From contig CACZNC010000001.1 of NCBI GenBank assembly GCA_902782445.1, positions 9,939-73,938 of the forward strand: DNA of 64,000 nucleotides. The letters are read 5' to 3'. The notes below the pieces were generated by a model. It was not told the origin of the DNA. It did not search any database and saw nothing but the letters and a program-made list of their open reading frames with translations. Within the stretch, counting starts at the first letter, position 1; the number at the start of each line of letters is the position of its first letter. The position numbers and the translations under genes were made by a program. This document shows, piece by piece, positions 5,578-64,000 of the stretch. Source of the DNA: an uncultured Ruminococcus sp. (GTDB lineage: Bacteria > Bacillota > Clostridia > Oscillospirales > CAG-272).

Positions 5578-5611
5578 GCGGCGCGGGACCGACTGAAACA
5601 GGGAGGACGCC

Positions 5612-5761
5612 ATGATGATTCCATACTGCCCGGCCGTTGCGCTTTCTCCCGCGACGGGGGATCCGGTGGTCACCATCCTCGCCGTGCTGGGGATTTCCGC
5701 CGTCGCGATGGTCGTTCTGACCGTCCTCTCGAAGCGCAGGGGCGGCGGACGCAGAAGATAA
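5612..5761 (+). CDS. Small (49 aa) single-pass membrane peptide, hypothetical
   Basis: Read by hand (below the ORF-track cutoff). GGGAGGA RBS at 5601-5607. Hydrophobic stretch VVTILAVLGISAVAMVVLTVL followed by KRRGGGRRR. The terminator follows. Confidence 0.3.
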   Translation: MMIPYCPAVALSPATGDPVVTILAVLGISAVAMVVLTVLSKRRGGGRRR

Positions 5762-5778
5762 TCCGAAAACCAAAAAAG

Positions 5779-5825
5779 AACGCCGTTTCCCGGGAGTTCA
5801 GGTCCCGAAGAAGCGGCGTTTTTTC
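5779..5825. terminator. Rho-independent terminator hairpin between convergent genes
   Basis: 11-bp stem AACGCCGTTTC/GAAGCGGCGTT (one G-U), T-run 5821-5825, A-run upstream (usable on both strands). Confidence 0.6.
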
Positions 5826-5847
5826 CTGTTCCGGATCCGGCGCGGCG

Positions 5848-7212: not shown

Positions 7213-7378
7213 AAATTGATGCCTCCTTGATTGGATCGGATCGATTTCTGTATGTTAGACGTTCGGAAAAGCCGATTTGTTCCCGGATTTCACAGTTTTT
7301 TTGATTCTGTTCAGAGAATCTCTCCGATATTCTGGAAGCGGAGCCCACAAAGCTCTTTGAGAACAGATGAACAAAGCG

Positions 7379-7424
7379 CAAAAAAGACTGGCGGATCCCC
7401 CGGAAAAGGAGAGTCCGTCAGTCT
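7379..7424 (-). terminator. Terminator after purL
   Basis: On the minus strand, AGACUGACGGA...UCCGCCAGUCU stem (one mismatch) followed by a U-run, 15 nt after the purL stop. Confidence 0.55.
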
Positions 7425-7438
7425 TGTCGTTTGCACGC

Positions 7439-10400: not shown

Positions 10401-11146
10401 TAGCGGTTCCACGCCTTTTCGAGAAGGGGATCCTCGAATTTCACGCTGTCCACCGTCGTGAGGAAGGTGGTGTGGCGGCAGTGATCGGACCAGTAGGTGT
10501 CGATCATGCGGAGCTCGGTGAGGGTGGGATCCCGCTTCTCCCCGCTGAAATAGGATCGGGTAAACGCGAGGTCCGCTTCGTCCATCGCAAGGCCCCATTT
10601 CGCGATAAAGGGAGCGAGATCTTCGTCCTTCATCGCCCGGAATCCGTCGAGGACCGCCACGTCTGCCGGAACGTCGTAGGGCCGGACGAGGGTCTCCTTC
10701 TCGTCGAGGGAGGCTTCCCGGGCTTCCACGGGGTTGATGACGTAGGCCTTGATCTTCGCGACGTCTTCCTCGCTCGGATAGCCGAGAAGGATATAGACCT
10801 TCGCCGAGGCCACGGTCGGACGGGTCCCCTGGGATATGATCTGGATGCACTGAGCCGCGGAGTCCGCCCGCTGGTCGTACTGGCCGGGGAGATATTCGAC
10901 GGCGAAAACGGCCGCGTCCCCGGGATTGGGAAGGGTATCCGTCACGATATCGGTCTGGGGTTCGGAAAAGACGGTGCGCTTCGCGTATTCAAAGAGGTCC
11001 CGGTCCAGCCCTTCCACGTCGTAGCGGTTGAAGATCCGCACGCCGTAGAGCTTGTCGATGCCGAGGAAGGAGCGGAGTTCACCGCGGAGGGCGTCCGCTT
11101 CGACCGTCAGTCCGGGGCGTTTTTCCACATAACATCTGTATACCAT
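7439..11146 (-). CDS. purL: Phosphoribosylformylglycinamidine synthase (single-chain FGAM synthase)
   Basis: 1235 aa. Duplicated AIR-synthase-like core and C-terminal glutaminase (GICNGFQ). Sits in the pur operon. Confidence 0.97.
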   Translation of the reverse strand: MVYRCYVEKRPGLTVEADALRGELRSFLGIDKLYGVRIFNRYDVEGLDRDLFEYAKRTVFSEPQTDIVTDTLPNPGDAAVFAVEYLPGQYDQRADSAAQCIQIISQGTRPTVASAKVYILLGYPSEEDVAKIKAYVINPVEAREASLDEKETLVRPYDVPADVAVLDGFRAMKDEDLAPFIAKWGLAMDEADLAFTRSYFSGEKRDPTLTELRMIDTYWSDHCRHTTFLTTVDSVKFEDPLLEKAWNRYLKTRESVGRGKKPVNLMDLATAAVRAMKAAGKLPKLDESEEINACTVKIDVEIGGKTEKWLLLFKNETHNHPTEIEPFGGAATCIGGAIRDPLSGRSYVYAAMRVTGAGDPTLPAETTLEGKLPQKKLVTTAAAGYSSYGNQIGLATGQVSELYHPGYVAKRMEIGAVIAAAPENTVRRERPVPGDLVILLGGRTGRDGCGGATGSSKSHTLHSLETCGAEVQKGNAPEERKLQRLFRNPEASLLIKRCNDFGAGGVSVAIGELADGLAIDLDKVPKKYDGLDGTELAISESQERMAVVVAAEDAEHFCRLADEENLEATVVASVTEAPRLTMTWRGKTIVDLSREFLSSNGAEKHIDVAPAAPLPWEKAIPEDMGSGFEALVSDLNVCSQRGLSERFDSTIGAGTVLMPFGGKYETTPAQAMAHKISVSDRNASTASFMAWGYNPMIAEKSPYHASYLAVVESVSRLIASGASFDDVYLTFQEYFEKPLRDPARWGKPLSALLGAFEAQMDLGVASIGGKDSMSGSFEKLDVPPTLVSFAVTTDPASFVISPEFKAAGHKIALLSPETAETGLPSASSLVSLYRKVRAGIEAGKILSAWTPSYGGVAEGLFKMALGNRVGVCLSETADPETLFGYSYGSFILELADGEDGAGFETILGETVEDYAITAGGKRICLSCLEKAYDSVLESVYPVHPQSETGETVETVTAKPSPRIHSPERYVRPRVLIPVFPGTNCEYDTSKALSAAGFDAKIMVLRNLTASAVAESVEAFARELKQAQAIFIPGGFSGGDEPDGSGKFITAFFRSGAVKEGTNELLKTRGGLMCGICNGFQALIKLGLVPFGEIVDTDETCPTLTFNTIGRHQSRIVLTRVSSNKSPWLAGCEVGEVYRVPISHGEGRFIASDDMLKRLVENGQIATQYADLDGRATMEIDFNPNGSMLAVEGITSPDGRVLGKMGHTERWNDGLYVNVPGNYDMKLFASAAEYFR

Positions 11147-50554: not shown

Positions 50555-50965
50555 TTATTTTTCCGCGATCCCGGCGGCGAGGACCTCCCGGAGGATGTGG
50601 CCGATGTTCCCGTTCCCGGCGAAGCGTTCGGCGTCGAAATAGTTTTCGTCGACGCTCAGCCAGAAGAGGGGCTGATCCTCAGCGCGCAGCTCGACCGGAC
50701 GGAGGAGACGGCCCGCCCAGATCTGCAGTTCCAGCCCCGTGACGCGGTAGATCATGTCCATCACGTGAGAAAGATGGATATCGTCCCGTCCGATGCCGCT
50801 TTCCTCTTCGAGTTCCCGGTAGGCGGCCTCCTCGTCGCTTTCCCCGGGCTCGATGTGTCCGCCCACCATGTTGAATTTGCCGCAGAACGGGTCCCGCGTC
50901 CGGCGGCAGAAGAGAAGACTGTCCCCTTCTGGCGAGAAGACCATGACGACGTTGCAGCGGATCAT
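50555..50965 (-). CDS. NUDIX hydrolase
   Basis: Start MIRCNVVMVF at 50965. Nudix box GGHIEPGESDEEAAYRELEEESG. Confidence 0.8.
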   Translation of the reverse strand: MIRCNVVMVFSPEGDSLLFCRRTRDPFCGKFNMVGGHIEPGESDEEAAYRELEEESGIGRDDIHLSHVMDMIYRVTGLELQIWAGRLLRPVELRAEDQPLFWLSVDENYFDAERFAGNGNIGHILREVLAAGIAEK

Positions 50966-50967
50966 CT

Positions 50968-51522
50968 TTATACCCCCGCCTGAAAGCTCGCCCAATTCTT
51001 CGGAGAGAGCCGTCCTTCGAGGATCTCCTCCCGCACGAGCAAGAGGGTCCGGTATTCCCTGAGATTCCAGTCCTGTTTCTTCGAGAAGGATGGATGGGAA
51101 TGGATCCGCTCGATGGCGTCATCCAGACGGAGCAGGCAGACCCGGAACCCGCGCTTCTTCTCGCTCTCCGAATAGGCGGTCTCCCCCGGCACCGGATCCA
51201 CTTCGCAGAAATACAGCCGGTTGAACTGATGCCAGATCCTCTCTCTTCGGTCGGAGCGGCGGATCTCCTCGATCTGGCCGAACTCCCGGATGGTGTCGGG
51301 GATCACCCTGTAACCCGTCTCCTCCCGGACCTCCCGGATCAGCGTGTCCGCGTCCCGCTCGCCTCTTTCGCGTCCCCCGCCGGGCAGTTTCAGAAGTCCG
51401 TCGCTGCTCTCGTTCAAGAGGAGGAGCCCGCCGATGAAAATCACGCCCCGCACCGCAGTCCGGCGGATCTCCACCGAAATGCCGTCGTAGTTCCCCGCGT
51501 CCAGCAGAAGAAGATCTTTCAT
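50968..51522 (-). CDS. NUDIX hydrolase
   Basis: Start MKDLLLLD with AAAGGAGG RBS. Nudix box LPGGGRERGERDADTLIREVREETG. The rest of the 386-aa ORF is antisense shadow. Confidence 0.8.
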   Translation of the reverse strand: MKDLLLLDAGNYDGISVEIRRTAVRGVIFIGGLLLLNESSDGLLKLPGGGRERGERDADTLIREVREETGYRVIPDTIREFGQIEEIRRSDRRERIWHQFNRLYFCEVDPVPGETAYSESEKKRGFRVCLLRLDDAIERIHSHPSFSKKQDWNLREYRTLLLVREEILEGRLSPKNWASFQAGV

Positions 51523-51545
51523 TTCCGTGCCTCCTTTTGAAACAG

Positions 51546-52304
51546 TCACTCCGGTTTTTTCGCCAGATAGAGGATGTGGGTGTCGAGAAACACGATCCGG
51601 TCCCCCGCGTCGAGGACGGCCTGCCGCAGACCTTCGAAGAGCAGGCTTTTGTCCGGCTCGGGAATCACGATGTGATCGCAGTGGGTCCCGCAGTATGAGA
51701 CGTATTCGTCGGCGGTGAAGATCCGCTTTCCCGCGTACTCCCGCTTTTCGAATCCGACATATCCGTATTCCGGCGCGGCGGTGTAGCGGAAGGACCCGTG
51801 GGGATAGGGCGTCCCGGGCCTGTAATGGGCGGAATAGACCTTCTGGATCTTCTGATAAAGGTCCTCGTCCGGCGTCCGGTAGTCGCCCCGGGTCAGTATC
51901 ATCGCCAGCGTCCCGCCCGGTTTCAGGAGGGAGAAGGTCTTGGAAAACGCGGTTTTCTCGGGGATCCACTGGATCGTCGCGGCGGAGTAGATCAGATCGA
52001 AGGTCATGCCCCCGAAATCGTGGGTGACGAAGTCGTCCCGGACGATCCGGAAATTCGGGAAGCGGCCGTATTTCTCCCGCATTTTCGCCGCAAGGTGTTC
52101 CCCCAGCTCGACGGCGAGGTAATCGCACCCGGTTTCAAGGACCGGATCCGTCGCCTGTCCCGTTCCGGGGCCGATTTCCAGCGCGGATTTCCCGGGGCCG
52201 ATCCCGGAATACGCGATCAGATCCCGGAAGAGCTCCGCCGAATACCGGGGCCGGTACCGGTCGAACTGCTCGGGGATCGAGTCAAAGGACAGTCTCAGTT
52301 CCAT
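51546..52304 (-). CDS. Class I SAM-dependent methyltransferase
   Basis: ALEIGPGTGQAT SAM motif. LLKPGGTLA. Confidence 0.85.
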   Translation of the reverse strand: MELRLSFDSIPEQFDRYRPRYSAELFRDLIAYSGIGPGKSALEIGPGTGQATDPVLETGCDYLAVELGEHLAAKMREKYGRFPNFRIVRDDFVTHDFGGMTFDLIYSAATIQWIPEKTAFSKTFSLLKPGGTLAMILTRGDYRTPDEDLYQKIQKVYSAHYRPGTPYPHGSFRYTAAPEYGYVGFEKREYAGKRIFTADEYVSYCGTHCDHIVIPEPDKSLLFEGLRQAVLDAGDRIVFLDTHILYLAKKPE

Positions 52305-52392
52305 TCTGCGCTCCCATATCTGTTTCGCGGCGGAATCGGGCGGACGGCGATACCTCCGGGGAAACAGATCGTCAATCGGATTTTCAAACGGT

Positions 52393-53256
52393 TCAGATCA
52401 TTTTATAGAGTTCGAAGCAGGTATGCCCTTTCGGGACGTCTTCGAGTTCGCCTCTGAGCAGATAGCCGTTCTTTTTGAAGAAATCGACGTTCCAGTCGCC
52501 TGCGGTCGTCAGGATCATGGACGCGCCGTTTTCCCTTGCACAGTCTTCCGCTTCCTTCAAAAGAGCAGTGCCCAGCCCCCGCAGTCTCAGCGGCTCTTCC
52601 ACGAACAGCGCGTCGACAAAGCCATACGCGCCTTTATTCACGTCCGCGATCATGCCTGCCGCTAACCTGCCGTCCCTGTCAACGAGCTTCTTGGTAAGCC
52701 CGACCCTCTCGTATTTCGGCTCGTAGGCTTCGTCGTATTTATCAAGGCCGGCCTCTATCGCGTCCGCGTCGTCCTCATTGCCGAAGGAAACCCGGAACCG
52801 CGCGCCGCCGTTGTTGGTCGGCACATAGTCCGGCGTGTCCCTGTCGAGGTACTTGACCAGGGAATAATCGGTATGGCCGTTTGCCTTTTTCAGCGTCGTA
52901 AAGACCGTGTAGCCGTGTTTTTCATAGAACGGTCTCGCCATGTAACTGGCGGTGCCCAGCGTCACGACCCGACAGCCTTTTTCACGCGCGATCCGCTCCA
53001 CCTCCCGGAGGATCATGGAGCCGATCCCCTGATGCCGACAGCGTTCGTCCACCCAAAGCTCTTCAAGCAAGACTCTCGCCCAGCGGTATTCGTATGCTTC
53101 CGCGATGCAGCCGCCGATGATCTCCCCGTTTTCGTTCTCGACTTTGAGGACGAATTCTTCGGCCTCCGCGTCCACTTCGTGCGGCACGATCTCATTGATC
53201 TTTTCGCCGATATATGCGGCTTCTTCTTTTGTCAGGTCCTCGATTGCATAATCCAT
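52393..53256 (-). CDS. Tandem-domain GNAT N-acetyltransferase
   Basis: Two acetyl-CoA motifs (RHQGIGSMILREVERIAREKG and LRGLGTALLKEAEDCARENG). Confidence 0.85.
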   Translation of the reverse strand: MDYAIEDLTKEEAAYIGEKINEIVPHEVDAEAEEFVLKVENENGEIIGGCIAEAYEYRWARVLLEELWVDERCRHQGIGSMILREVERIAREKGCRVVTLGTASYMARPFYEKHGYTVFTTLKKANGHTDYSLVKYLDRDTPDYVPTNNGGARFRVSFGNEDDADAIEAGLDKYDEAYEPKYERVGLTKKLVDRDGRLAAGMIADVNKGAYGFVDALFVEEPLRLRGLGTALLKEAEDCARENGASMILTTAGDWNVDFFKKNGYLLRGELEDVPKGHTCFELYKMI

Positions 53257-53295
53257 TTTTGTCTTCTCCTCAAAAAGCGGATTGGCTTGTTGATT

Positions 53296-53424
53296 TTATC
53301 CGTTTTTCAGACGTTCCGTGTCTTCGACCTCATGCGGAACAGAAATGAAGTCCTTCTTCTGGCGGCACAAGCAGCAAACAATTTCGACGTCGTTTTGTGT
53401 GTAAGGAAACTCATCGCCCACCAC
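53296..53424 (-). pseudogene. Orphan 3' fragment (42 codons) of a RumA/TrmA-family RNA (uracil-5)-methyltransferase gene
   Basis: Hand translation VVGDEFPYTQNDVEIVCCLCRQKK... fits the C-terminal D-x-F-P-x-T-x-H-x-E-x-V-x-L motif (E. coli RlmD ends DMFPHTGHLESMVLF, from memory). In-frame TGA immediately upstream at 53425-53427, where the AT-rich DNA begins. Confidence 0.45.
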
Positions 53425-54802
53425 TCAACAAAGAAATGTTGAGATTATTCTATTATATTTTCTTCGCCGTGTATTCGTTAATTAGAGAGACCACACTATG
53501 CATTACTGATTCGTTCTCTTTAATCTTTTTTATACACTCTATTGCATAACTGATGGCTTGTTTTTGTGAATTGTTAAGTGTAAATTGAGATGGCATCGCT
53601 TGCAAAATGGCTAAACAATCAACGGTGTCTTTAACATCTTCTGCTAAATATTCATGAGGAACATCAATGCCATCAAGTGAATAATCTTTATACTTCCTTG
53701 GTGTTGCATTGCTGATTTTAAAGATCATATCATTGCAATCGCCTTCATAGTATGTGAAAATCCTCTTTGCAAACACTCTCTTTTCGATGCTTTCTTTGAT
53801 GTTCTTCCCCAACAGATAATTTAAATATGATTTATGGCTTTTTGATTTAATAATAGGGTATAGGGAATCAAAGAAATCCGATAGATGTTTTATTGACTTC
53901 CAAGTTCGGATATATCTTCCATTAAGATTGTATTCATTAATCGGCTTATTTCTTCCTAGATTGCCTCTTTCTAATGCAGTCCCATGAAGAATATTCTCAG
54001 ATTTTGTAACCCATTCCAAATTATCTATACATGGATTTGATCGATCTTCGTCGATATGATTAACAAGCGGTTTGTCATCAGGATTTGGAATAAACTGTTT
54101 GGCAACCATAATATGAGCTAATCGGAAGATAGTTCTTTTTTCAATGCGTAAAATATGCGCACGATATCCATTGTGCAAAGTGCCATTGATTATTCTATGA
54201 GTGAGCTTATTGCGAATTTGCCCCATTTTGTTGATTTCATATTGACTGTCCGGAAACTCTATTAGCGGATAAAAGATAAAATACTCTTTGGGTTTCTGGA
54301 TGCCTGTCTCTTCAAAATATTTTTTTGCGGCAAACTCTCCATTGTCCCACGATATATTGTCCAAGGAACAATTATCAGCATTTCCATCAAGATGTATTAA
54401 ATCAGTATAAGAATGAGAACCATCATTGAGCATAAAGGTTTCAGCGACTAATTCGTCAATGCGTCTGGATTTCTTTTCTCCATTCTTATCTTCTAAAGTT
54501 CTAAATACTGCACCATTAGCACCATTTTTTTGTAGGCTTAATATTCTCCCTGTTTTTATACTTCGCAATTGACCATAACGACTAATTTCATATTCTGGGT
54601 ATTCTGCTAACTGGACCCAATCGCTTTTTGCACTCTTCAATTCATCACACTCTTTTCATAATTTGTTGTATTGGGCAGTCATCAAAAACGCCCTTTTGCT
54701 TAGAATGTCAAAAGAAATCTTATGCCTTTCAGAACATATAGCACTTACTTTCTATGACTCATTTTTAGAATCCTTGATCCTATAATAATCCTCTGCATTT
54801 AC
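53425..54802. mobile_element. AT-rich horizontally acquired cassette carrying only an HNH endonuclease gene
   Basis: Hand counts of 60-nt lines give 17/60 and 19/60 G+C here, versus 40/60 in purL. Sharp composition switch at about 53425 and about 54830. Confidence 0.45.
53453..54640 (-). CDS. HNH homing-endonuclease-like protein with two NUMOD4+HNH_3 modules and an IENR/NUMOD1-like tail
   Basis: WVQLAEYPEYEISRYGQLRS + HLDGNADNCSLDNISW. Then FPDSQYEINKMGQIRN + VNHIDEDRSNPCIDNLEWVTKSEN. TTG start. Confidence 0.8.
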   Translation of the reverse strand: MKSAKSDWVQLAEYPEYEISRYGQLRSIKTGRILSLQKNGANGAVFRTLEDKNGEKKSRRIDELVAETFMLNDGSHSYTDLIHLDGNADNCSLDNISWDNGEFAAKKYFEETGIQKPKEYFIFYPLIEFPDSQYEINKMGQIRNKLTHRIINGTLHNGYRAHILRIEKRTIFRLAHIMVAKQFIPNPDDKPLVNHIDEDRSNPCIDNLEWVTKSENILHGTALERGNLGRNKPINEYNLNGRYIRTWKSIKHLSDFFDSLYPIIKSKSHKSYLNYLLGKNIKESIEKRVFAKRIFTYYEGDCNDMIFKISNATPRKYKDYSLDGIDVPHEYLAEDVKDTVDCLAILQAMPSQFTLNNSQKQAISYAIECIKKIKENESVMHSVVSLINEYTAKKI

Positions 54803-54828
54803 ATCTATCTCAACATAGTCCCTTGGCC

Positions 54829-56508
54829 TTACACATATTTGCTCAAGCAACATACCGTCTCAACGTGTGATCCATCGTCCAAACTCAAAATCATATCCTC
54901 CTTGATGATCGGGAGCCTGAAAGTGATGGATTTCAGCCACTGACCGTTCGGCTGTCTTTCCTTGTACACCTCGATTTCGGAGATCAGGGCTTCCATCATC
55001 TTTCGCTTTTCGAGATCGGACATCTTGGAGTACAGCTTATCAAAGTAAATCAGGATCTTGTAGATGTTGTCTCCGGTGAGCTTCTCCGCCTCGATCGACA
55101 TCTTCTTCGCTCTGGCTGTGATAAGCTCGGATTCGGTGTCGTCTATCTTATCATACATCTTATACAGCCGTTCGTCAAGATCTGTTTTTCTCCTGGTGTA
55201 ATGTTTGTCGTCAGGATCGAGCGAATCGATCTCGTCGAGCAGCCTTGCCTTCAGGGAATACTGCTGACGAAGTTGCTTCTCGAGGGCGGTTATTTCTTCT
55301 TCAATCGCGGCGGTATCCACCTTCATATTGATCTTTTCCTGCATCAGAGCGGCGAACTCCGGGTTGCTCACCAGTTTCATGAGAATTTCCGTCACCGCGT
55401 CGTTCAGCACCTCTTCATTGATCTGCTTTTTGTAATCGCATTTGTGTCCGCGTGTCAGATCGCGGTGCTTGCAGCCATAGTAGAAGAAGTCCTTGTATTT
55501 CGAGCCGTCCGGTTTGTATTTCGTGCATTTGTTGCCGTACATCCCGGCGCCGCATACGGGACAGCGGACGATCCCGGACAGCAGATGAACGTTTTCGTCC
55601 TTTCCCCGGTTCACGTGCTCGTATTTCTCAGCCATGACACGGAGCTTTACCTGCGCGGCATCCCAAACCTCGGGTGATACGATAGGTTCATGACGTCCGT
55701 CGACAAGGAGATAATCGTCCTGCTCGACCAGGTGGTATTCGTTGCGGGTCCCGTACACCTTTTCCGTCTTCCTTCTGCCGTATGCGATTTTTCCGCAGTA
55801 CACCGGATTGTTCAGAATCCGGCGGATCAGAGCGGCGTTAAACAGCGGATTTTTGCCGTTCTGCCGTTCGATCTTCCGAATTCCATGGTTTTCGAGATAT
55901 TTGGCAATTCCGTTCGCTCCCGAATCCGTGTGCACATACTGATCGAATATCATGCGGATCGCTTCGGCCTCCTCTTCGTTGACGATCAGTTCGCCGTTCT
56001 CCAGCTTGTAGCCGTAAGGAGCGAAACCGCCATTCCATTTGCCTTCCCGGGCTTTCTGGATCCGTCCTTCCATCGTCTGAACCCGGATGTTCTCGCGTTC
56101 GATCTCCGCTACGGCGGAAAGCACGGAGATCATCAGCTTCCCGGCGTCTTTTGAGGAATCGATCCCGTCCTCAACACAGATGAGATTGACGCCGAAATCC
56201 TGCATGGTCTGCAGAGTGGAGAGCACATCTGCCGCGTTTCTTCCGAAACGGGACAGCTTGAACACGAGGACGAAGGACACGTCGTCTTTCCCGGTTTTGA
56301 TGTCCTCCATCATACGGTTGAACTCCATCCGTCCTTCGATGGATTTGCCGGATTTTCCCGCGTCCTCGTATTCGCCGACGATTTCAAAACCATTGAATTC
56401 AGCATAGGCTTTCATTCTGGTTTTCTGTGCATCCAGAGAGTACCCGTCGACCTGCATTGTCGTGGATACTCTCGTATAGATGTACACTTTCTGTTTTGTG
56501 TTGTTCAT
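54829..56508 (-). CDS. Large serine recombinase
   Basis: N-terminal resolvase domain YIYTRVSTTMQ..SLDAQ, recombinase domain, zinc-ribbon CPVCG..C, coiled coil. 559 aa. Confidence 0.93.
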   Translation of the reverse strand: MNNTKQKVYIYTRVSTTMQVDGYSLDAQKTRMKAYAEFNGFEIVGEYEDAGKSGKSIEGRMEFNRMMEDIKTGKDDVSFVLVFKLSRFGRNAADVLSTLQTMQDFGVNLICVEDGIDSSKDAGKLMISVLSAVAEIERENIRVQTMEGRIQKAREGKWNGGFAPYGYKLENGELIVNEEEAEAIRMIFDQYVHTDSGANGIAKYLENHGIRKIERQNGKNPLFNAALIRRILNNPVYCGKIAYGRRKTEKVYGTRNEYHLVEQDDYLLVDGRHEPIVSPEVWDAAQVKLRVMAEKYEHVNRGKDENVHLLSGIVRCPVCGAGMYGNKCTKYKPDGSKYKDFFYYGCKHRDLTRGHKCDYKKQINEEVLNDAVTEILMKLVSNPEFAALMQEKINMKVDTAAIEEEITALEKQLRQQYSLKARLLDEIDSLDPDDKHYTRRKTDLDERLYKMYDKIDDTESELITARAKKMSIEAEKLTGDNIYKILIYFDKLYSKMSDLEKRKMMEALISEIEVYKERQPNGQWLKSITFRLPIIKEDMILSLDDGSHVETVCCLSKYV

Positions 56509-56604
56509 AACTCATTCCCTGATCATACCTTTGACGCAGCGCTGCTTTCCTCTGCTATCCTCGTTCAAAAATCGGGTTTGGACACCGATTACACGAATAT
56601 TGTA

Positions 56605-56844
56605 TCATAAAATTTCGGCATTTTCAAGTGTTTTTTCAGAATGTTTGGTTTTTTTCTTACAGTCGATACGTTCTTCTTCGCATCCTTTCTTAAACCTCGG
56701 CGGATCGGGAAGACTGTCAAGGTCGATCTCCCCGGCATACTTTTCGATCATTTCAGCCAGAAAAGCCGCAAATCCGCTCCACACATCCTCATTCCACTGC
56801 ACCGTGCCGTCGTTCCTCCTTTCCTCTGTTTTTGCCCTGAGCAT
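56605..56844 (-). CDS. Small hypothetical protein downstream of mob
   Basis: 79-aa ORF overlapping the mob 3' end by 56 nt. An internal Met at 56751 would remove the overlap. No recognised motif. Confidence 0.35.
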   Translation of the reverse strand: MLRAKTEERRNDGTVQWNEDVWSGFAAFLAEMIEKYAGEIDLDSLPDPPRFKKGCEEERIDCKKKTKHSEKTLENAEIL

Positions 56845-57769
56845 ACGCCTCCAGGATCTCCCTCGGGATCCTCTCCACCGTCTTCAAAAGCTCGGCGTAC
56901 TCCTGCTCCCGCTTGAACCGCTCCATCTTCTCGGCTATCCGCTCCCGCCCGGCATCCTCCGCTTTGGCGAGCCTGCCTTTCAGCTCTTCGTTCTCTTCGG
57001 TCAGGGCTTTGTTTTTCTCGACCGCCTTGTGAAGTTTTGTCTTGAACTTCTCCACCCCCGGGATATACTCGTCCAGAAGCTCGGCGATCTCCGCGGCGCG
57101 GGATTTGGCGTTGAAGGCGTTCGTCCAGGACAGCAGCTCCATGAGCCGATCCCTCTGGGCGTTCAGGTGTACAGCCTCCTTATACAGCCGCGGCGGAAGG
57201 TGCTCCCGTCCGGTCTGGCTGGCGCTCTCTCCCCGTTCCAGCTCCGGGTACTTCTTCACCATGTGCTTCCAGAACTCGTCCTGCCACCAGATCAGCTTCT
57301 TCTTGTTCCCGACAATATCCTTTGCTGACAAGCGTCCGTCCTCAGTCAGCGGTACGAAGCAGAGGTGCATGTGGGGCGTCTTCTCATCCATGTGCACCAC
57401 CGCGGAGATGATCGTCTTCTCACTCTGATGGGCTTTGACGAAATCCAGCGCATAGGCGAAGTATTCCTTGACCTCTGCTTTCTTCTTTCCCTTGAAGAAC
57501 GCCGGGCTTGCGGTGACGAGGGCTTCGACCACCCTCACACTGTCCGATCGGGTTCTGCATCCGGCCTCCGCGATCTGTCTTTCAGCCTCAGCCCGGTATT
57601 TCCGATCCGGCGTCACAAGGTGGAAGTTGTACTGACTCCGGCTGGTGTCCACATCGGGATTGCTGGCATACTGCTCCTTCGTGCGTTCGTTGTGTGCTTC
57701 GATGTGTCCGATCTCCGGTCCCTTGTATTTGGCAAACCGGAGGATTCCGTACTGTGCCTTTCCCATCAA
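56789..57769 (-). CDS. mob: MobV-family relaxase (plasmid recombination enzyme, Mob_Pre)
   Basis: N-terminus ILRFAKYKG..IGHIEAHNER and the HMHLCFVP histidine motif typical of Mob_Pre relaxases. Confidence 0.9.
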   Translation of the reverse strand: MMGKAQYGILRFAKYKGPEIGHIEAHNERTKEQYASNPDVDTSRSQYNFHLVTPDRKYRAEAERQIAEAGCRTRSDSVRVVEALVTASPAFFKGKKKAEVKEYFAYALDFVKAHQSEKTIISAVVHMDEKTPHMHLCFVPLTEDGRLSAKDIVGNKKKLIWWQDEFWKHMVKKYPELERGESASQTGREHLPPRLYKEAVHLNAQRDRLMELLSWTNAFNAKSRAAEIAELLDEYIPGVEKFKTKLHKAVEKNKALTEENEELKGRLAKAEDAGRERIAEKMERFKREQEYAELLKTVERIPREILEAYAQGKNRGKEERRHGAVE

Positions 57770-58023
57770 TCCCCCTCCTTCTTCTGCCAGACGATCCTGT
57801 AACCCAGAATGTCGGCCAGCTCCACGACCTCATGATACCGGATGGAATCCCGGCTCAATTTGGCAGAGAAATTCGATACGCTATCACTCCAGCCGTATTT
57901 TTCAGCCAGAGTCGCCACAAGCTCCTGCATCGTGAGCCCTTCGCGGATGATGTGCGCCTTGATTTCGCTCCGTGCGCCGGGATGGATTTTTGGACGGATG
58001 GTTGGATGGTTTGTGTTTTTCAT
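57766..58023 (-). CDS. Small DNA-binding-like accessory protein upstream of mob
   Basis: Start MKNTNHPTIRPK with AGGAGG RBS. 85 aa. ATGA-type overlap with the mob start. Confidence 0.55.
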   Translation of the reverse strand: MKNTNHPTIRPKIHPGARSEIKAHIIREGLTMQELVATLAEKYGWSDSVSNFSAKLSRDSIRYHEVVELADILGYRIVWQKKEGD

Positions 58024-58120
58024 GAATGGTTCCTCCTGTGATTTTCGATATAATGAAACGGTTTCTCTGTATAGCGGTGAAAACCTTGTATTTACTGTGT
58101 TCCGGCGTGAACTCCAAAAG

Positions 58121-58184
58121 ATCCATCCCAAGCATCCCATATATACCGCGCCGATTCGGGACGTTTGGGATGGATGGGATGGAT
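58121..58184. repeat. Inverted and tandem GGGATGGAT repeats (candidate oriT/operator)
   Basis: ATCCATCCCA-AGCATCCCA ... 27 nt ... TGGGATGGAT-GGGATGGAT. Intergenic, upstream of the accessory-mob operon. Confidence 0.45.
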
Positions 58185-58200
58185 AAATCAAAGTCCAGCG

Positions 58201-59493
58201 TCATAACATTGTAGGCGATATCAGACCTTCGATCCCCCAGAATCCGTTGACCCGCTTGCCTTTGCGGTTCATAATGTGATTGTCGTGTTCCAACCGGAAC
58301 TCTGCCGCGTGCTTATTGAGTGTTGAACTCACGGTCCGGGCGGACAAGGGCTTCATGGCGTTGTCCTCACACCATTGCTTGTAAATCGCATAGAGATCGG
58401 CGGAGGGGATCGTGCTGTCCGCTTTGAGCCGGATATATCCCTCCGAACGGAGAAAGGGGATCACATTGTCAGCATCTTGTCGGGCTTCCTCCCGGTTGGC
58501 CTTTGTCTGCTCGCTCTCGGTGAACCGGAACCCGTTCTCCGTCAGCCTCTTTAGTCCCGTGAGACACCAGAGGAAGATTCCCTCGGCCTCGGCGCAGAGC
58601 TTGTCCGCGAGGAAGGGATCGTCCTCCCGGCCTTCCGGCTTTTTCTTCACCGACAGGATCAACTGCCGACGGAAGAACCCTTCGGAATGGTCATACAACG
58701 CCTGCAAGTCTCCGTTTGAGAACGCGAGGAACCGGACATACATCTCGCCTTGATAGCTCTGCTCCCCCTTCTTTTCGAGATCCATCGGCATTTCCGCCGT
58801 AATGAGGGATTTGAGATAGTGCGTCGATTTCAGGGCTTCCATCTGCATATCGTCGTCCACCATGCAGAGCTCATGCTCCAGATCGGCCCGGGCAAACGGA
58901 CTGTGCTCCACTTTGGCGATACTGCCGTTTTTCAGATTGTCACCGAGCAGAGCCCGCATCACGATCCCGATCCGCGACTTGCCCTCGCCGCCGCTGCCCT
59001 TGAGAAGAAGCATCGTCTGGCCCCGGGTTGTCGGGATCAGGCAGTAGCCCATATACTCCTGAAGCGTCATCGCATCCTCATATTCCAGAAGGTCCTCAAT
59101 AAACAGTATCCATTTCGCGGGCAGGTCTGCGCCGGGATTGTACGCCACCGGCAGGCGGTTCCGGCAGAACTCCTTGTCCGTCGTGAATCTCATGCCGTCG
59201 AGAAATAGTGTTCCATTGGCCACATGGAGCCGGTCCGTCTGGACAGGCAGATCCGGGCTGAACGCTTCAAGCCGCAGGGTGTCCAGCAGGTTCTTCACCT
59301 TCTTCGCGGCTCCGGTACTGACATAGGGTTTCAGCAAATCGTACATCTCTTTTCCGATCCGGGCTTCGTCCGTGATCCGCCCCTCCGTCGTGAAAAAGCT
59401 GCCGTTCACACAGATCATGGGGTGATCCGCCAGATAGTCATGACAGAAGAGCGTTTCGAACAGGTGCTTTCCGTCATACCAGACCGGGAGCAT
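58201..59493 (-). CDS. P4/D5-family primase-helicase (phage/plasmid primase C-terminal NTPase)
   Basis: Walker A GSGGEGKS, Walker B-like MVDD. The ORF extends to a TTG at 59592 (56-nt overlap with the upstream gene). ATG 59493 with a GAGGAG RBS is preferred. Confidence 0.85.
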   Translation of the reverse strand: MLPVWYDGKHLFETLFCHDYLADHPMICVNGSFFTTEGRITDEARIGKEMYDLLKPYVSTGAAKKVKNLLDTLRLEAFSPDLPVQTDRLHVANGTLFLDGMRFTTDKEFCRNRLPVAYNPGADLPAKWILFIEDLLEYEDAMTLQEYMGYCLIPTTRGQTMLLLKGSGGEGKSRIGIVMRALLGDNLKNGSIAKVEHSPFARADLEHELCMVDDDMQMEALKSTHYLKSLITAEMPMDLEKKGEQSYQGEMYVRFLAFSNGDLQALYDHSEGFFRRQLILSVKKKPEGREDDPFLADKLCAEAEGIFLWCLTGLKRLTENGFRFTESEQTKANREEARQDADNVIPFLRSEGYIRLKADSTIPSADLYAIYKQWCEDNAMKPLSARTVSSTLNKHAAEFRLEHDNHIMNRKGKRVNGFWGIEGLISPTML

Positions 59494-59536
59494 CTCGTCC
59501 ACGATCTCCTCTTCGGTTTCTTCCTCCGTCCCCGGA

Positions 59537-60136
59537 TTATCTGCACGCAATGCTTTCTTCTTTTTCACGAATGCCCTCCAAATATTGTTCAAGCTCCCCG
59601 ATCTTTCCTTCCTCCTTCATGCTGTTCACAAGCTCACGCTTCGTCTTCGTGTCCGCGGCGATCAGAAGATCCACCATATACGTCACCGGCTCCATCATCC
59701 GGCAGGCTTCGAGAAACCGGGGATGAGGAGTTTCATCCTCGGAGTTCGGCGCATATCGTACCTTCCACCCTCGCAGCAGTTCCAGAAAGTCGGTAAGTAC
59801 CCTGAAACAGCGACGTTCCTCATCGAGGGTATCCTTGTACGTCCGAAGGCGTTCCATCACAGAAACGGGGTAATTACCCCCGATTCCGAAGTCTTCCGTG
59901 AGTCTCCGCGCCGCCTCCCCCGGCGAGAGCCCCGTCAGCTTTGCCGTGAGGGTAATCACATCCCCGCTTGCACCGCATCCGAAGCAGAAGTAGTAATCCT
60001 CATTCAGCTTCATGCTCGGGTGCCGGTCGTCGTGGAAGGGACACCGGGCCATCCCTTTGCGGTCGAAATCCAGTCCGTACCGCTCCGCCGCCTGCTTAAT
60101 CGTGACGGCGGATTTCACTTTTTCATAGATCGTCAT
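59537..60136 (-). CDS. CHC2 zinc-finger (primase-type) protein
   Basis: CPFHDDRHPSMKLNEDYYFCFGCGASGDVI. Confidence 0.85.
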   Translation of the reverse strand: MTIYEKVKSAVTIKQAAERYGLDFDRKGMARCPFHDDRHPSMKLNEDYYFCFGCGASGDVITLTAKLTGLSPGEAARRLTEDFGIGGNYPVSVMERLRTYKDTLDEERRCFRVLTDFLELLRGWKVRYAPNSEDETPHPRFLEACRMMEPVTYMVDLLIAADTKTKRELVNSMKEEGKIGELEQYLEGIREKEESIACR

Positions 60137-60247
60137 GCGATCCTCCTTTCCGACGATTTTTCACCGTCTATATACACTTTACGGAATCCATCCGCCCGAA
60201 AAGGAGATTTTGGCAGAAGTGCAGAAAAGAAAAAATCCTTCCCCGGA

Positions 60248-60267
60248 AAATTGCAGAAATGCAATTT
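60248..60267. promoter_or_regulatory. Palindromic operator candidate
   Basis: AAATTGCA-GAAA-TGCAATTT perfect 8-bp arms in the divergent control region. Confidence 0.4.
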
Positions 60268-60347
60268 CAGGGCGGGAGCACTGGATTCAACTCAGAAATC
60301 AAGATTAACAGTCGTGATAAATCGACGCAAAATGACAAGAAAATCTC

Positions 60348-60376
60348 TTGACAGAGAAATTTGTTCATGATATAAT
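60348..60376 (+). promoter_or_regulatory. Sigma-A type promoter of the XRE-sigma operon
   Basis: TTGACA-17 nt-TATAAT. Confidence 0.6.
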
Positions 60377-60413
60377 AATATTGAAAGTCAAAGAAGGAGG
60401 CTATTTGTCGAGA

Positions 60414-61241
60414 ATGAATGAACGAAACTATCTTCCGGGCACGATCAGGGAACGCTTACAGGAGCTGATGAAGAGAAGGCATATCAAGCAGGCGGATCTG
60501 GCAGAAAAGATCGGGGTGGACAACGCGACCCTCAGCCGCTTCATCAACGGCAAGACGGACAAGATCAGCCCCGACGCCATCGTCCGCATGGCGAAGGAAT
60601 TTGAAGTCTCCACGGACTTCCTGCTCGGGGTGGTGAACGATCCGGCACGGAAGAATTACGACATCGGGGAGATCGGCTTGACCGTGGACGCCGCGCGGAA
60701 CCTGTACACAGGAAAGGTCAACGCCGACGTGGTGAACCGCCTGCTGACGAACGACCGCTTCGCCGATACTGCGGATCAGATTGCCCTGTACCTCGAAGAC
60801 CGCCTGGCCCGGGGTGTGGCAGCACAGAACGAGATTTACGGACTGGCCTGCAATCAGTTGAAAAAAATCCCGGACGCAAAAAAAGATGCGGACGAAATCC
60901 ACAGCTGGATCTCAAATCCGCATCGGGACGAGCTGAACGGGATTACAAGTTCCTTTGAAGCCTCACTCCGGGAAATCAAGAAGGAATACGGTTCGGACAA
61001 TCTGAAAGAGACGCAGGTGATGAGCCGGGAGATCACGCGGGGAATGTACGCCGAGGTCATGAAAGGGCGGGACATCCGCGATCCAAAGCTGACGCCGGAG
61101 GAATATGTGGATCGGGTGTGCGTGTATCTCACAACGAGTCAAGGCATATCGGAAACCTTGCTGAAACCGTTCCGATGGGTGTTGATCTTCCTTTTGAAGC
61201 TCTTCGGCGGAAAGGCGGCTCATGGACAAATCAACGACTAA
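60414..61241 (+). CDS. XRE-family HTH transcriptional regulator with long C-terminal domain
   Basis: Start MNERNY with AAGGAGG RBS. HTH IKQADLAEKIGVDNATLSRFINGKT. Confidence 0.85.
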   Translation: MNERNYLPGTIRERLQELMKRRHIKQADLAEKIGVDNATLSRFINGKTDKISPDAIVRMAKEFEVSTDFLLGVVNDPARKNYDIGEIGLTVDAARNLYTGKVNADVVNRLLTNDRFADTADQIALYLEDRLARGVAAQNEIYGLACNQLKKIPDAKKDADEIHSWISNPHRDELNGITSSFEASLREIKKEYGSDNLKETQVMSREITRGMYAEVMKGRDIRDPKLTPEEYVDRVCVYLTTSQGISETLLKPFRWVLIFLLKLFGGKAAHGQIND

Positions 61242-61884
61242 CGAAGAGCTCTGTCTCGCAGCTCAGAACGGCGACGAAGAAGCCGGCAACCTCCTGATTG
61301 AGCAGAACGCCGGGTTCATCGTCATGACCGTCCGGTCCGTGCTCGGTCTGTTTGGAATCAAGCCCTGGGAAATCGGGCTGACCTATGACGACCTGCTTGA
61401 AGAAGGGCGGATCGGGATGTGGAAGTCCATAGCGAAGTACGACCCGGAGAGCGGGGCGAACTTCCTGACCTATGCGAAGCCGGCAATCCGACACGCGGTG
61501 ATCGATCTCATCCGCCAGCAGCGGCAGGACATGGAAGCGCTGTCCGACCGGATCACCGTCGAAGCACTGGAAACCCGGTACAGCGAGGGGCAGCGGTACA
61601 CGGTCTGGGACGATCTCGCCGAAATGCCGGACATAGTCGGCGATCCGTTTCATCAGTCGCCGGAGCAGATCTACATGGAAAAGGAACTGATCGAACGCCT
61701 GTACCGCGCACTGATCGACGTGGGTGAGCGGAGCGGCACCTATCTATGCTACCGCTTCGGGTTCGACGACGGGGACGAGCATTCCGTCCGGGAAACCGCG
61801 GAGCATTTCACGATTACCGAAACCATCGCAAAATCCGTGGAAAGAACCGCGCTGGCTGAGATGCGTCGGGAAATGGCGGGATAA
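61222..61884 (+). CDS. Sigma-70 family RNA polymerase sigma factor (MGE-borne)
   Basis: Region 2 (DDLLEEGRIGMWKSIAKYDP..FLTYAKPAIRHAVID) and region 4 HTH (SVRETAEHFTITETIAKSVERTAL). Confidence 0.85.
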   Translation: MDKSTTNEELCLAAQNGDEEAGNLLIEQNAGFIVMTVRSVLGLFGIKPWEIGLTYDDLLEEGRIGMWKSIAKYDPESGANFLTYAKPAIRHAVIDLIRQQRQDMEALSDRITVEALETRYSEGQRYTVWDDLAEMPDIVGDPFHQSPEQIYMEKELIERLYRALIDVGERSGTYLCYRFGFDDGDEHSVRETAEHFTITETIAKSVERTALAEMRREMAG

Positions 61885-61921
61885 GGGGAACGGGGGAACG
61901 TCGCCGCGGCGGGAGTATATA

Positions 61922-62296
61922 CCTTTCGATCCCCCGGCGTCGTGACTCATGCCTCCGTCATGAGTCCGAGCCTACACACACCCGGAGGGGAATCACAGGC
62001 TTTCACGCCCACGATTCCCCTCCGTTCTGCTGTCATCGGAAAGACTCTGCGTCTCTCGCGCATCCCCTTTCCGCTCCCAGCGGGATCCAAAGGTATAACA
62101 CACTAGACTTTCACGGAAAGTCGTGTGCCAAAAGGAACGCTGTCCCCTTTGGATTCCTCTGCCACGAAACCTCCGGTTTCTTTGGATTCTTCCGGCCAAC
62201 AGAGAGCCTCCCGCCCCCTATTGGATGACCCCGGGCAAAGGGGAGCGCCCCTTTGAAATCCCCCGCCTAAGAATCCGGTGAGAATCTTTGGAGTCC
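61922..62296 (+). repeat. Iteron-like YCTTTGGADTCY repeats interleaved with perfect hairpins (non-coding)
   Basis: Direct copies at 62146, 62179, 62250 and 62285. Inverted copy at 62084-62094. Degenerate copy at 61922. Hairpins at 61944-61966, 61983-62024 (12 bp), 62097-62130, 62236-62255. Confidence 0.45.
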
Positions 62297-62472
62297 GCCG
62301 TCAAAATGGCATACGTATGCACGCAGATCTATCTAACAGAGATTGCAGTGATCCAGCCACGTACATGTTCATGGCGGCGTTGTGGGCGATTATCTCACGG
62401 CAGCTTGCAGGGGAAGAGGTTCGGGGTGGGGGAAGATACCAGATTGGCGATAATCCGCGAAGAAGTCGTTGA

Positions 62473-63747
62473 TCAGTTGTTCCCCCAAAACGCCCGCAGG
62501 TATTTCTCGTCGAGGATCTTGTTTTCGGCGCAGTATTCGATCACGTGTTCCACATAGTTCTTCAGCGTTTTTTCGTCAAGCCCGATTGCTGCCAGTTCTT
62601 CGGGCGTCATCCTCACGATCTTCTCCCATGTGTAAATTGCTCCGTCGAACATGTACGCTGTCGGGTTTATCAGCTTTTCCTTCATATCGTTTTCATCCAG
62701 GAACAGTGCGGCGATGTACTCGTCCGTCAGGATCATGTCGTCCCCCAGTTTCTTCCGCTCCTCGTTGAGCGTGGTCAACTGCTCCCGGGTAATGCCCAGT
62801 TCCCGGACGGTCTGCACCATCGTCGGCAGGGCGTTCTGTTCGTCGATTGTTTTTTTCAGGAATATGTTGTTGACCCAGTCGTTCAGCCGTTCTTCTTCGA
62901 TGATTGGGGTTTCCCCGTGGTACAGCTTTTCCAGATAGGCGATGTTGTACGTGATGTCCTGATATTCCCTGTTGAACGCGGATATTCCTCCGACCGCAGC
63001 GCTCTGCTCATAGAAGAGCGTTTCCAGTCTGCGCAGACTGGCGTAGCTGTCGGCTCCCCCTGCGACGTCAAGCCCGCTCATGGTCATCCGCAGCGTGGGA
63101 TCGATCAGGCGCGAGACAATGGCGGCCACCTCCGAGCGGCGGACTTTCGATTCCGGGAAGAAGCTTCCGGCTTCGTCCATTCCCGTCAGCACGCCTGCTC
63201 GGTAGAGACGGTACACATTCTCGGTGTTCTGCAAGAAAGGCAGGTCTGGGATGGCGTTGTCCACAACCGCGTTGATCTCTGCTAGTTCATTTACCGGCAA
63301 GGCGCGGGATAAAAGAGATGCACACTCGATCCGGAAGGCAGGCTGTGTCACATCTCCGGGTTCACCGGGCTGGATTCCATTATCCATGCAGTACTTGACG
63401 TACCCATAAAACCACGGCTTGTCCGCCTGATTGTCATATCCGTCAGCAGCCTCCGCAGAACCGGTGTGATAGATCGCGTGGATCCGCGCGGTGACGGTAT
63501 AGACCTCGGCGAGCGTGATGTCTGACTCCGGTGCGAACCGGTTCCCGCCCACGCCGATCATCAGGCCGGTTTTCGAGATACTCTTTACGTACGGCGCGAA
63601 CCAGTCCCCAGATGAAACGTCCGTGAAGGTCAGCGCTTGCTTATCGCTCATGAAGTGTGCAAGACTGCCGTCCGTCGCAAAGGCGGCAAAGGGCAGGATC
63701 AAAACGGACAAAAGAAATGCCGTCAGTAAAGAAATAATGCGTTTCAT
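62473..63747 (-). CDS. Secreted SLH-domain protein
   Basis: Signal peptide MKRIISLLTAFLLSVLILPFAAFA. SLH-like FTDVSSGDWFAPYV...GNRFAPESDITLAEV. Confidence 0.75.
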   Translation of the reverse strand: MKRIISLLTAFLLSVLILPFAAFATDGSLAHFMSDKQALTFTDVSSGDWFAPYVKSISKTGLMIGVGGNRFAPESDITLAEVYTVTARIHAIYHTGSAEAADGYDNQADKPWFYGYVKYCMDNGIQPGEPGDVTQPAFRIECASLLSRALPVNELAEINAVVDNAIPDLPFLQNTENVYRLYRAGVLTGMDEAGSFFPESKVRRSEVAAIVSRLIDPTLRMTMSGLDVAGGADSYASLRRLETLFYEQSAAVGGISAFNREYQDITYNIAYLEKLYHGETPIIEEERLNDWVNNIFLKKTIDEQNALPTMVQTVRELGITREQLTTLNEERKKLGDDMILTDEYIAALFLDENDMKEKLINPTAYMFDGAIYTWEKIVRMTPEELAAIGLDEKTLKNYVEHVIEYCAENKILDEKYLRAFWGNN

Positions 63748-63770
63748 AGTATCCTCCAGTTTGAAGTCAT

Positions 63771-64000
63771 TTACTGATGCTCCGCCAGCCAGATCGACAC
63801 GCGGGACTGTATATTCTTCATGCAGGTTTCCCGGTTCTGTCCCCCTCCCGTAAAGGCGGAAATCTCTTCCTGAATGATGGCAAGAACATCCGCCGGAGTA
63901 TAGTCCGCGACAGGGATTGCGGCCGCTCCGTCCAACAACGCGTATACCCGGTCGAGGTAGTCCGGCGTGACGTCGATCAGCAGTCCGTCCAATCTCTGAG
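63771..64000 (-). CDS. C-terminal part of a solute-binding-type lipoprotein paralog (5' part beyond the window)
   Basis: Frame is open to nt 64000. The tail EEISAFTGGGQNRETCMKNIQSRVSIWLAEHQ parallels EEISTYLGGLGSAEDCAGKIQSRVSIWLAEHS of the 24931-27324 protein. Confidence 0.6.
   Translation of the reverse strand, partial: QRLDGLLIDVTPDYLDRVYALLDGAAAIPVADYTPADVLAIIQEEISAFTGGGQNRETCMKNIQSRVSIWLAEHQ

Follow-up and report, generated by a model that had tools for sequence, protein, structure and literature searches.

A displaced rumA 3' end as the probable distal junction of a composite insertion in an uncultured Ruminococcus sp.

We analysed a 64,000-nucleotide stretch of DNA from an uncultured Ruminococcus sp. 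(GenBank assembly GCA_902782445.1, contig CACZNC010000001.1, positions 9,939 to 73,938 of the forward strand; hereafter the window). The analysis followed up an earlier note in which a 42-codon open reading frame (ORF) on the minus strand was read as the severed C-terminus of an RNA uracil-5-methyltransferase. This ORF very probably represents the distal junction of a composite insertion, 14.9 kb long, that entered the 3' end of rumA, the gene for a 23S rRNA uracil-5-methyltransferase. The insertion is composed of a 13.4-kb integrative and mobilizable element (IME) and a 1.5-kb segment of low G+C content (GC). The evidence comes from the anatomy of the sequence, the gene body found upstream, a relative that lacks the insert, the site at which recombinase genes diverge and the homology of the tail itself. 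Feature coordinates are collected in Table 1.

Results

The frame described in the earlier note is present and is preceded by an in-frame TGA (53427..53425), and the abrupt change in GC that was claimed, from 0.58-0.59 in host DNA to 0.33-0.36, falls at about 53430. We aligned the encoded peptide with 120 RumA homologues, a set gathered by database search with the rumA gene body and not with the 42-aa peptide. As the note had supposed, the peptide matched the C-terminus of the family, namely the last ~35 residues of native RumA alleles. The best blastp match was to residues 416-449 of the 449 residues of P0007 (69% identity, 48.5 bits, E 3e-11), and five native alleles matched at E 5e-8 or better; the maximum among 200 shuffled versions of the peptide was 24.6 bits. 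The closest native alleles end in ...HVETVCCLY[HR]Q.KDFIS[VL]PYEP..., and an allele with a 95% identical body (P0002) ends in ...HVETVCCLYHQKKDFISLPYEPKNASYMKTMQ.

Alternatively, the ORF could be the remnant of a decayed second methyltransferase paralogue or a chance ORF, in either case unrelated to an insertion. The PF05958 profile did not match the 42-aa peptide even at E up to 10, and a search with it against a database of 5.8 billion proteins, the word index of which is coarse for so short a query, returned a single match, another short orphan tail. We attribute the profile miss to the peptide being too short. The homology score lies far above those of the shuffles, the window contains no other methyltransferase fragment, and synteny with a contig from another strain (L002) sets an intact rumA immediately before the tail position, with both flanks 95-96% identical. 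A paralogous or chance origin is therefore highly improbable.

Not all of the 42 codons derive from rumA. The claim of a tail holds for the last ~26 (CCLCRQKK...NG-stop), but the first 16 were contributed by the inserted segment. Homology to L002 restarts exactly at TGCTGCTTG, which is the start of the displaced tail, and this tail is in register with seven other tail copies. The first 16 codons, VVGDEFPYTQNDVEIV, mirror a stretch retained in the rumA body, VPVNMFPATRHVETV. Because they duplicate this stretch with only 25 of 45 DNA positions identical (by hand count, with one extra codon) and are absent from L002, we regard them as the right end of the inserted segment, an arm that finishes in a degenerate core (GAAATTGTT, identical to GAGACGGTA at 5 of 9 positions). 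The D-E-F-P stretch, in which the note had recognized the family motif D-x-F-P-x-T-x-H-x-E, is part of this arm and not of the rumA gene. The canonical spacing is absent: the peptide reads D-E-F-P-Y-T-Q-N-D-V-E, which differs from D-x-F-P-x-T-x-H-V-E by one additional residue and by Asp in place of His. The displaced tail itself would be a non-functional, untranslated relic beside the host GNAT gene, and the 42-codon ORF should not be called a gene in annotation.

A hairpin had also been described next to the ORF. The inverted repeat CTCAACA/TGTTGAG is present (53443..53424), but does not stand out from chance. It folds with a z-score of -0.16 and is terminator-like on the plus strand only (terminator scan: 1 site against 1.5 expected from shuffles), so we rejected it as a terminator or recombination signal.

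The remainder of the methyltransferase gene lies outside the window. A tblastn search with RumA across all 64,000 nucleotides gave only a 10-residue match at the end of a recombinase gene, in agreement with the claim that no methyltransferase body exists up to that point. The window was extended with L001, taken from a 107.6-kb ENA contig located by exact-protein look-up, which agreed with the window without a mismatch over 11,275 bases; the arrangement is present in three assembled contigs. Coordinates continued into this contig are called extended. The extension carries a minus-strand gene of the rumA/rlmD type that ends in a substitute tail, as the note had predicted. This gene is intact through ...RIVPVNMFPATRHVETV (...FPATRHVETV) and then continues into a tail of ~95 aa encoded by the element, such that the fusion reads ...HVETV/CLLSKLESQPHIEV...GMIEGEK-stop (CLLSKLES...GMIEGEK-stop). 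The junction is in frame, and GC falls there from ~0.65 to ~0.51. The gene is re-tailed, not truncated or broken. A RumA-element fusion has been mentioned before, its significance being unknown (Srinivasan et al. 2014, PMC4120198).

The ~95-aa extension (L001 5466-5772, extended 68282..67976) matches no Pfam family. We found it in 2,393 cluster representatives, invariably as the C-terminal part of proteins that are RumA-sized, recombinase-sized or fragmentary (such as P0137, P0146, P0162 and P0233), and it carries the conserved terminal motif CPP.KE.AI..AL.HFG.I. Its stop codon overlaps the start codon of the next gene, which encodes a DUF6061 protein (ATGA, L001 5769-5772).

Comparison with L002 identified the DNA between the gene body and the tail as foreign. 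L002 encodes a RumA of 451 aa that is 95% identical. Positions 1-4921 of L002 are collinear with L001 553-5473, up to the core described below (95% identity), and positions 5598-10995 are collinear with window positions 53379-47967, from the tail onwards (96% identity). Because collinearity runs up to the core and resumes at the tail, the intervening 14.9 kb is an insertion. The host GNAT gene beyond the tail is 95.1% identical to its L002 orthologue and is syntenic in L002 and L004. At least 10.5 kb of foreign DNA had been postulated between tail and body, containing an HNH cassette, an IME and possibly SLH and SBP genes; the actual 14.9 kb, all of which is missing from the syntenic L002, includes the HNH ORF and genes for a recombinase, a relaxase, a primase, two sigma factors, and SLH and SBP-like proteins. 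In the suggested comparison with an island-free strain, L002 lacks the 14.9-kb insert, but a different small cassette occupies the same point.

The larger part of the insertion, absent in its entirety from L002, has its own recombinase and relaxase, and none of its 14 called genes is a type IV secretion system (T4SS) or coupling-protein gene; we therefore classified it as an IME rather than an integrative and conjugative element (ICE). Its attachment (att) core, GAGACGGTATG, is the sole match in the window. The same sequence, as GAGACGGTATG(TT), recurs at the rumA/IME junction (L001 5455-5465, extended 68293..68283). The only two perfect copies of GAGACGGTATGTT in the island are at L001 5455 and 18887, and no internal att sites besides these two ends split the 13.4-kb element.

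The recombinase gene carries the other boundary. A 97.7% identical copy from another genome (L130) departs from the window right after GTTGAGAC.GT, and because it diverges there we placed the right edge of the IME at about 54854. All 120 of the close recombinase homologues read ...SLDN..[HQ][VI]E[TSAC]V, with complete divergence beyond this point. At about 80% identity, homologues have variable C-termini, including some short tails that resemble RumA ends, and about a quarter of the homologues carry an extension of 90-110 aa of the same type as that on RumA. Recombinases that read into the extension are expected of attP or tandem states. The limits of the island are now fixed to within a few bases, at 13.4 kb for the IME and 1.5 kb for the HNH segment.

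A second family of large serine recombinases, with the N-terminus YIYTRVSTA.QVDGYSL.AQK and another C-terminal region, likewise terminates at the same core, with the same tail adjoining. ORFs of this family in L129 and L028 end in ...PLEKSTLIETV/CCLYHQKK, and the tail copies there lie on the plus strand at 2308 and 2990. More than one recombinase lineage uses the rumA-type core site.

The smaller part of the insertion, ~1.47 kb long, lacks a recombinase gene and resembles a cis-mobilizable element (CIME) or a cassette. On its left a perfect core lies within the recombinase gene, to which the segment supplies the last seven codons (CCLSKYV-stop); on its right the degenerate core precedes the tail. 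Its only gene is the HNH ORF, which is predicted to belong to the free-standing homing-endonuclease type. The exact protein is known only from this rumA context. The segment is part of neither the IME nor the host DNA.

It might be that this segment arrived by HNH homing and not by serine recombination, in which case the 16 RumA-like codons would be a co-converted, cleavage-resistant copy of the target. The combination of NUMOD4 and HNH_3 is the architecture of free-standing homing endonucleases, distant relatives of the protein occur in 1,362 phage records, and the flanks form a diverged duplication of ...VE.VCCL.... The GC of the ORF is far below that of all its surroundings, and its seven metagenome relatives (42-66% identity, in unrelated contexts) are likewise low-GC genes in higher-GC surroundings. 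However, DNA homology between the ORF and its relatives stops at the ORF ends, and none of the seven has a rumA-type core or tail nearby. The left edge of the segment also coincides exactly with the recombinase core. Finally, cassettes with AAA_18, GNAT and YoaP genes (described below) show the same order of tail, gene, arm and tail, and because these are not nuclease genes the layout needs no nuclease. We consider arrival by homing unlikely.

The HNH ORF holds two NUMOD4 and two HNH_3 matches and looks internally duplicated. In the public gene call the start is placed 69 codons further in, which gives 326 aa, compared with 395 aa for the longest ORF.

Table 1. Features of the rumA insertion and its surroundings. 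Positions refer to the window unless marked as extended or preceded by a contig name; a slash in a sequence marks a joint.
Feature	Position	Strand	Details
Orphan-tail ORF	53424..53296	minus	GTG start, TAA stop, translation VVGDEFPYTQNDVEIVCCLCRQKKDFISVPHEVEDTERLKNG-stop
Displaced rumA 3' end	53296..53376	minus	CCLCRQKKDFISVPHEVEDTERLKNG-stop; directly upstream of host GNAT gene
Right-end arm of low-GC segment	53377..53424	minus	RumA-mimicking stretch VVGDEFPYTQND, then degenerate core
Host GNAT acetyltransferase, 287 aa	52393..53256	minus	Marks chromosomal side of junction
Low-GC segment, ~1.47 kb	53386..54859	minus	GC 0.343; without recombinase (CIME- or cassette-like)
NUMOD4 + HNH_3 gene, 395 aa	53453..54640	minus	GC 0.34; Pfam NUMOD4 9.5e-10, HNH_3 1.4e-9
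IME, 13.4 kb	54854..64000, on to extended ~68290	minus	Gene calls and Pfam
Large serine recombinase, 559 aa	54829..56508	minus	Pfam Resolvase, Recombinase, Zn_ribbon_recom
att core	54851..54861	minus	GAGACGGTATG, in recombinase gene's last codons H-V-E-T-V; IME right junction
MobV relaxase	57769..56789	minus	Pfam Mob_Pre
Primase-helicase	59592..58201	minus	D5_N/DUF5906
DnaG-type Zn-ribbon protein	60136..59537	minus	
Helix-turn-helix regulator	60348..61241	plus	
Sigma-70-like	61222..61884	plus	
SLH protein	63747..62473	minus	
SBP-like protein, 790 aa	End of gene from 63771	minus	
rumA, 526 aa	Extended 69556..67976 (L001 4192-5772)	minus	PF05958; gene call and Pfam
Predicted empty-site joint, rumA body to tail			...CATGTGGA/AATTGTTTGCTGCTTGTGCC...
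Predicted IME circle joint			...GGATCACACGTTGA/GACGGTATGTTTATTGTCCAAACTT...
Predicted HNH-segment circle joint			...CAAAACGACGTCGA/GACGGTATGTTGCTTGAGCAAAT...
Example cassette arrays	L086 4708-5856; L112 6173-7848; L022, L054, L062, L107, L122, L127; L002 4912-5601; L005 4749-5398	L112 minus	

Discussion

We propose that the large serine recombinase of the IME would have joined an att site of the element, located within the last codons of the recombinase gene itself, to the conserved H-V-E-T-V codons of rumA. The exchange would be reciprocal and in frame, such that RumA is kept through HVETV and gains the ~95-aa tail of the element, and the recombinase gains whatever lay 3' of the core in the target. 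A second foreign piece, the 1.5-kb HNH segment, would have come to lie between the recombinase and the old tail and stranded the latter. In the canonical order, the low-GC segment would have entered before the IME, which would then have used the rebuilt rumA site; an IME-first history yields an identical structure, so the sequence of the two events cannot be read from it. Both junctions would be products of serine recombination.

Several observations weigh against this account. In published cases, the recombinase gene runs directly into the rumA 3' codons, whereas here the tail lies 1.47 kb away from it; a second insertion accounts for this distance, which does not contradict the mechanism. 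The core next to the tail is degenerate (5/9). We found no copy of the recombinase-less HNH segment at any other rumA, so its mode of arrival and its movement as a unit at rumA are putative. There is no sign that the IME remains active. L002 carries a 0.69-kb AAA_18 cassette at the insertion point (4912-5601), so we rejected it as a clean empty site. Finally, the two strains have different bases at the seven positions that follow the published GA crossover and directly precede TGCTGCTTG (AATTGTT vs GACGGTA), and share the next 35. Because those seven bases differ, a single ancestral tail with a crossover at GA is insufficient to explain both strains.

The distal half of the tail is also more divergent than expected. 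Window positions 53296-53341 and L002 5636-5680 are 49% identical (23/47) with indels, whereas flanking genes of the two strains are 94-95% identical. Because third codon positions in these flanking genes are 88-91% identical, the divergence of the distal tail exceeds neutral drift; repeated recombination with incoming tails is a possibility.

The mechanism of insertion is already published, and the in-frame swap of C-termini between recombinase and RumA is not new. Elements carrying vanG and the element ICE-r are inserted in rumA of Streptococcus agalactiae, S. anginosus, Enterococcus faecalis and Roseburia intestinalis (Srinivasan et al. 2014, PMC4120198). They insert at a GA dinucleotide in the Glu codon of the HVE motif, 11 codons from the rumA end, and the rumA 5' part becomes fused to ~115 element codons and the rumA 3' codons to a serine recombinase gene of 547-549 codons; tandem insertions occur, and the wild-type tail can be stranded kilobases downstream (PMC4120198). 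The insertion described here shares the HVE target, an element-encoded RumA tail (~95 aa) and a recombinase at the right end (559 aa). Unlike those elements, it comprises a 13.4-kb mobilizable element without conjugation genes or vanG, its host is an uncultured Clostridia lineage of ~60% GC, the displaced tail has 26 codons instead of 11, and an additional 1.47-kb HNH segment separates this tail from the recombinase. Our results add an uncultured high-GC Clostridia lineage to the hosts of a hot spot known from streptococci, enterococci, Clostridioides and Roseburia, but no new mechanism.

Streptococcal ICEs and IMEs with a single serine integrase also target rumA, for example IME_SpnAP200_rumA (Ambroset et al. 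2016, PMC4701971; Guedon et al. 2017, PMC5704250). Both kinds of element occupy the streptococcal site (PMC4701971, PMC5704250), and the occupant here is likewise an IME. In these elements the integrase gene contains attR and trades its 3' part for that of rumA (PMC4701971). Flanking direct repeats of streptococcal rumA elements are 2-21 bp long, compared with 13 bp here. According to PMC4701971, both proteins undergo a change of reading frame on replacement. In contrast to that account, the two fusions at this locus preserve the frame, and what is swapped is a conserved domain of ~95 aa.

The pairing, at one target, of a complete element with a segment that lacks recombinase and transfer genes and has att-like flanks resembles the tandem accretion of CIMEs with IMEs or ICEs (Pavlovic 2004 and Bellanger 2011, as reviewed in PMC5704250). 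Classic CIMEs involve tyrosine integrases and tRNA or fda-type sites. Unlike these, the small segment has a degenerate right att and only putative mobility.

The tail is not confined to this locus. We scanned 185,579 species-representative genomes with the degenerate pattern CCL[CY][RH]QKKDFI and obtained at least 120 matching stretches. Nearly all of the 80 matches for which a source was listed come from ruminant-gut metagenome-assembled genomes, assigned to Lachnospiraceae, Oscillospiraceae, Erysipelotrichaceae, Christensenellales and others. Among the stretches obtained, about 50 tail copies end long RumA ORFs with very divergent bodies, a few end serine recombinases of two families, and ~65 are orphans, the nearest in-frame stop codon lying less than 60 codons before the tail. 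Many of the orphans are preceded by arms comparable to F.FVDLFL....[IV]ETV or ADLFPLTLRVEAV. Mean pairwise identity among the copies is 0.88-0.89 for the core, 0.62-0.65 for the tail outside the search pattern and 0.39 for the rumA body 46-90 nt upstream. The tail in the window is 84% identical to the consensus of this repeat family over the first 45 nt and 51% identical beyond them, and by this comparison it appears to be a diverged member.

Many of these copies are arranged in arrays behind rumA. In L002, L003 and L005, a rumA or other gene end is followed by a tail, one small gene and a second, displaced tail. The units between successive copies are 428-689 bp long with one ORF in rumA orientation, apart from two of 1.2 and 2.2 kb with two ORFs each, and have a GC of 35-42% regardless of that of the host. 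Each is bounded by the core GAGACGGTA and a near-invariant tail of ~90 nt (CCLYHQKKDFISVPYEPK..). Units carrying AAA_18 or a PNPOx-like gene of 138 aa recur at 95-96% identity in unrelated genomes, with homology stopping at the cores. The cargo includes GNATs, AAA_18 kinase-like, PNPOx-like, Cys_rich_CPCC, DUF3795 and DUF3784 proteins, a SAM methyltransferase and YoaP. We found no description of cassette arrays at rumA in the literature, although our coverage was incomplete and this is weak evidence of novelty.

In L126, a minus-strand RumA ORF of 611 aa reads in frame through HVETV into a cassette stretch of ~150 aa, followed by a second ETV/CCLYHQKK tail (starting at nt 7472). Long RumA fusion proteins are therefore a product of some insertions. 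In P0129, a stretch similar to that in L126 is joined to a recombinase.

The prevalence of such units raises the question of where the stranded tail came from. It may be, with a likelihood that we put a little below even, that it is a replacement tail which an earlier, spreading cassette brought in and which once served as the working end of rumA, the HNH segment being a further cassette. This would refine the proposed mechanism and does not contradict it. Tails of the type CCL[CY][RH]QKKDFISVPYEPK... occur in several Firmicutes families, and their identity outside the search pattern contrasts with that of the RumA bodies to which they are attached. The ~65 orphans behind single genes, the discrete units that are nearly identical between unrelated genomes and the common layout of L002, L003 and L005 are consistent with spreading cassettes as well. 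On the other hand, this copy occupies the array's chromosomal end in both strains, which is where the simple model would have the tail that preceded any insertion. Its distal half is far from the family consensus, the identity of the first 32 nt is inflated by the pattern used to find the copies, and neither the left tail of the HNH segment (CCLSKYV-stop) nor its right arm is like a typical cassette end.

More tentatively, the stranded tail could be a diverged recombination-site repeat of an undescribed integron- or SCC-like cassette system in ruminant-gut Firmicutes, with the HNH segment as an atypical member. We hold it to be possible, with the same reserve, that units of such a system bear a replacement rumA tail of ~90 nt on one side and an arm that mimics RumA on the other. 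Stacked behind rumA, the units would probably be moved in trans by large serine recombinases that target rumA and would probably be expressed from the rumA promoter.

Staphylococcal cassette chromosome (SCC) elements offer one parallel. SCCmec and pseudo-SCC elements occupy staphylococcal rlmH (orfX), likewise a 23S rRNA methyltransferase gene, the 3' end of which is the target of large serine recombinases. The end of rlmH is restored by every SCC element, and units with and without a recombinase pile up in tandem, split by direct repeats that contain the 3' end of the gene. The rumA units differ in the methyltransferase, the recombinase family and the hosts, and the single-gene units are much smaller (0.4-0.7 kb). 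By analogy only, they also resemble integron cassettes: single-gene units in the same orientation, with a conserved recombination site, are stacked after a fixed platform, the same unit can turn up in more than one array, and GNATs and small unknown proteins are common among the cargo. Unlike integrons, they have no tyrosine integrase and no attC hairpin, their site is the end of a protein-coding gene, and the associated recombinases are large serine recombinases. If the cassette interpretation is true, the single-gene units would constitute a gene-capture platform in Gram-positive gut bacteria, a role filled elsewhere by integrons, and the arrays would offer many naturally occurring variants of att sites for serine integrases. 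This side observation could matter more than the junction itself.

Some features of the surrounding DNA bear on these subjects less directly. The host genes downstream of the tail (50555-53256, minus strand) encode a double-GNAT protein of 287 aa, a SAM methyltransferase of 252 aa and two NUDIX proteins. They resemble cassette cargo in kind, yet their GC is like that of the host and L002 has conserved copies of them. Old cassettes that have become fixed are a possible source. The SAM methyltransferase is called at 252 aa in the window and at 166 aa in L002.

A promoter-like site, TTAACG-18-TATAAT (10/12; 53452-53481, minus strand), lies in the end of the HNH segment and is oriented towards the tail and the GNAT gene of the host. 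Only its fit to the consensus identifies it, in a region with 8 such matches against 5.9 expected, and it could substitute for read-through from rumA that the insertion severed.

A scan with Rfam over positions 53200-64000 gave no match. Within the IME, a non-coding gap of ~590 bp (61885-62472) between the sigma-factor and SLH genes has neither an Rfam match nor an att-like core; it contains GAATCCAAAG twice and the G+C-rich palindrome AAAGGGGCGCTCCCCTTT.

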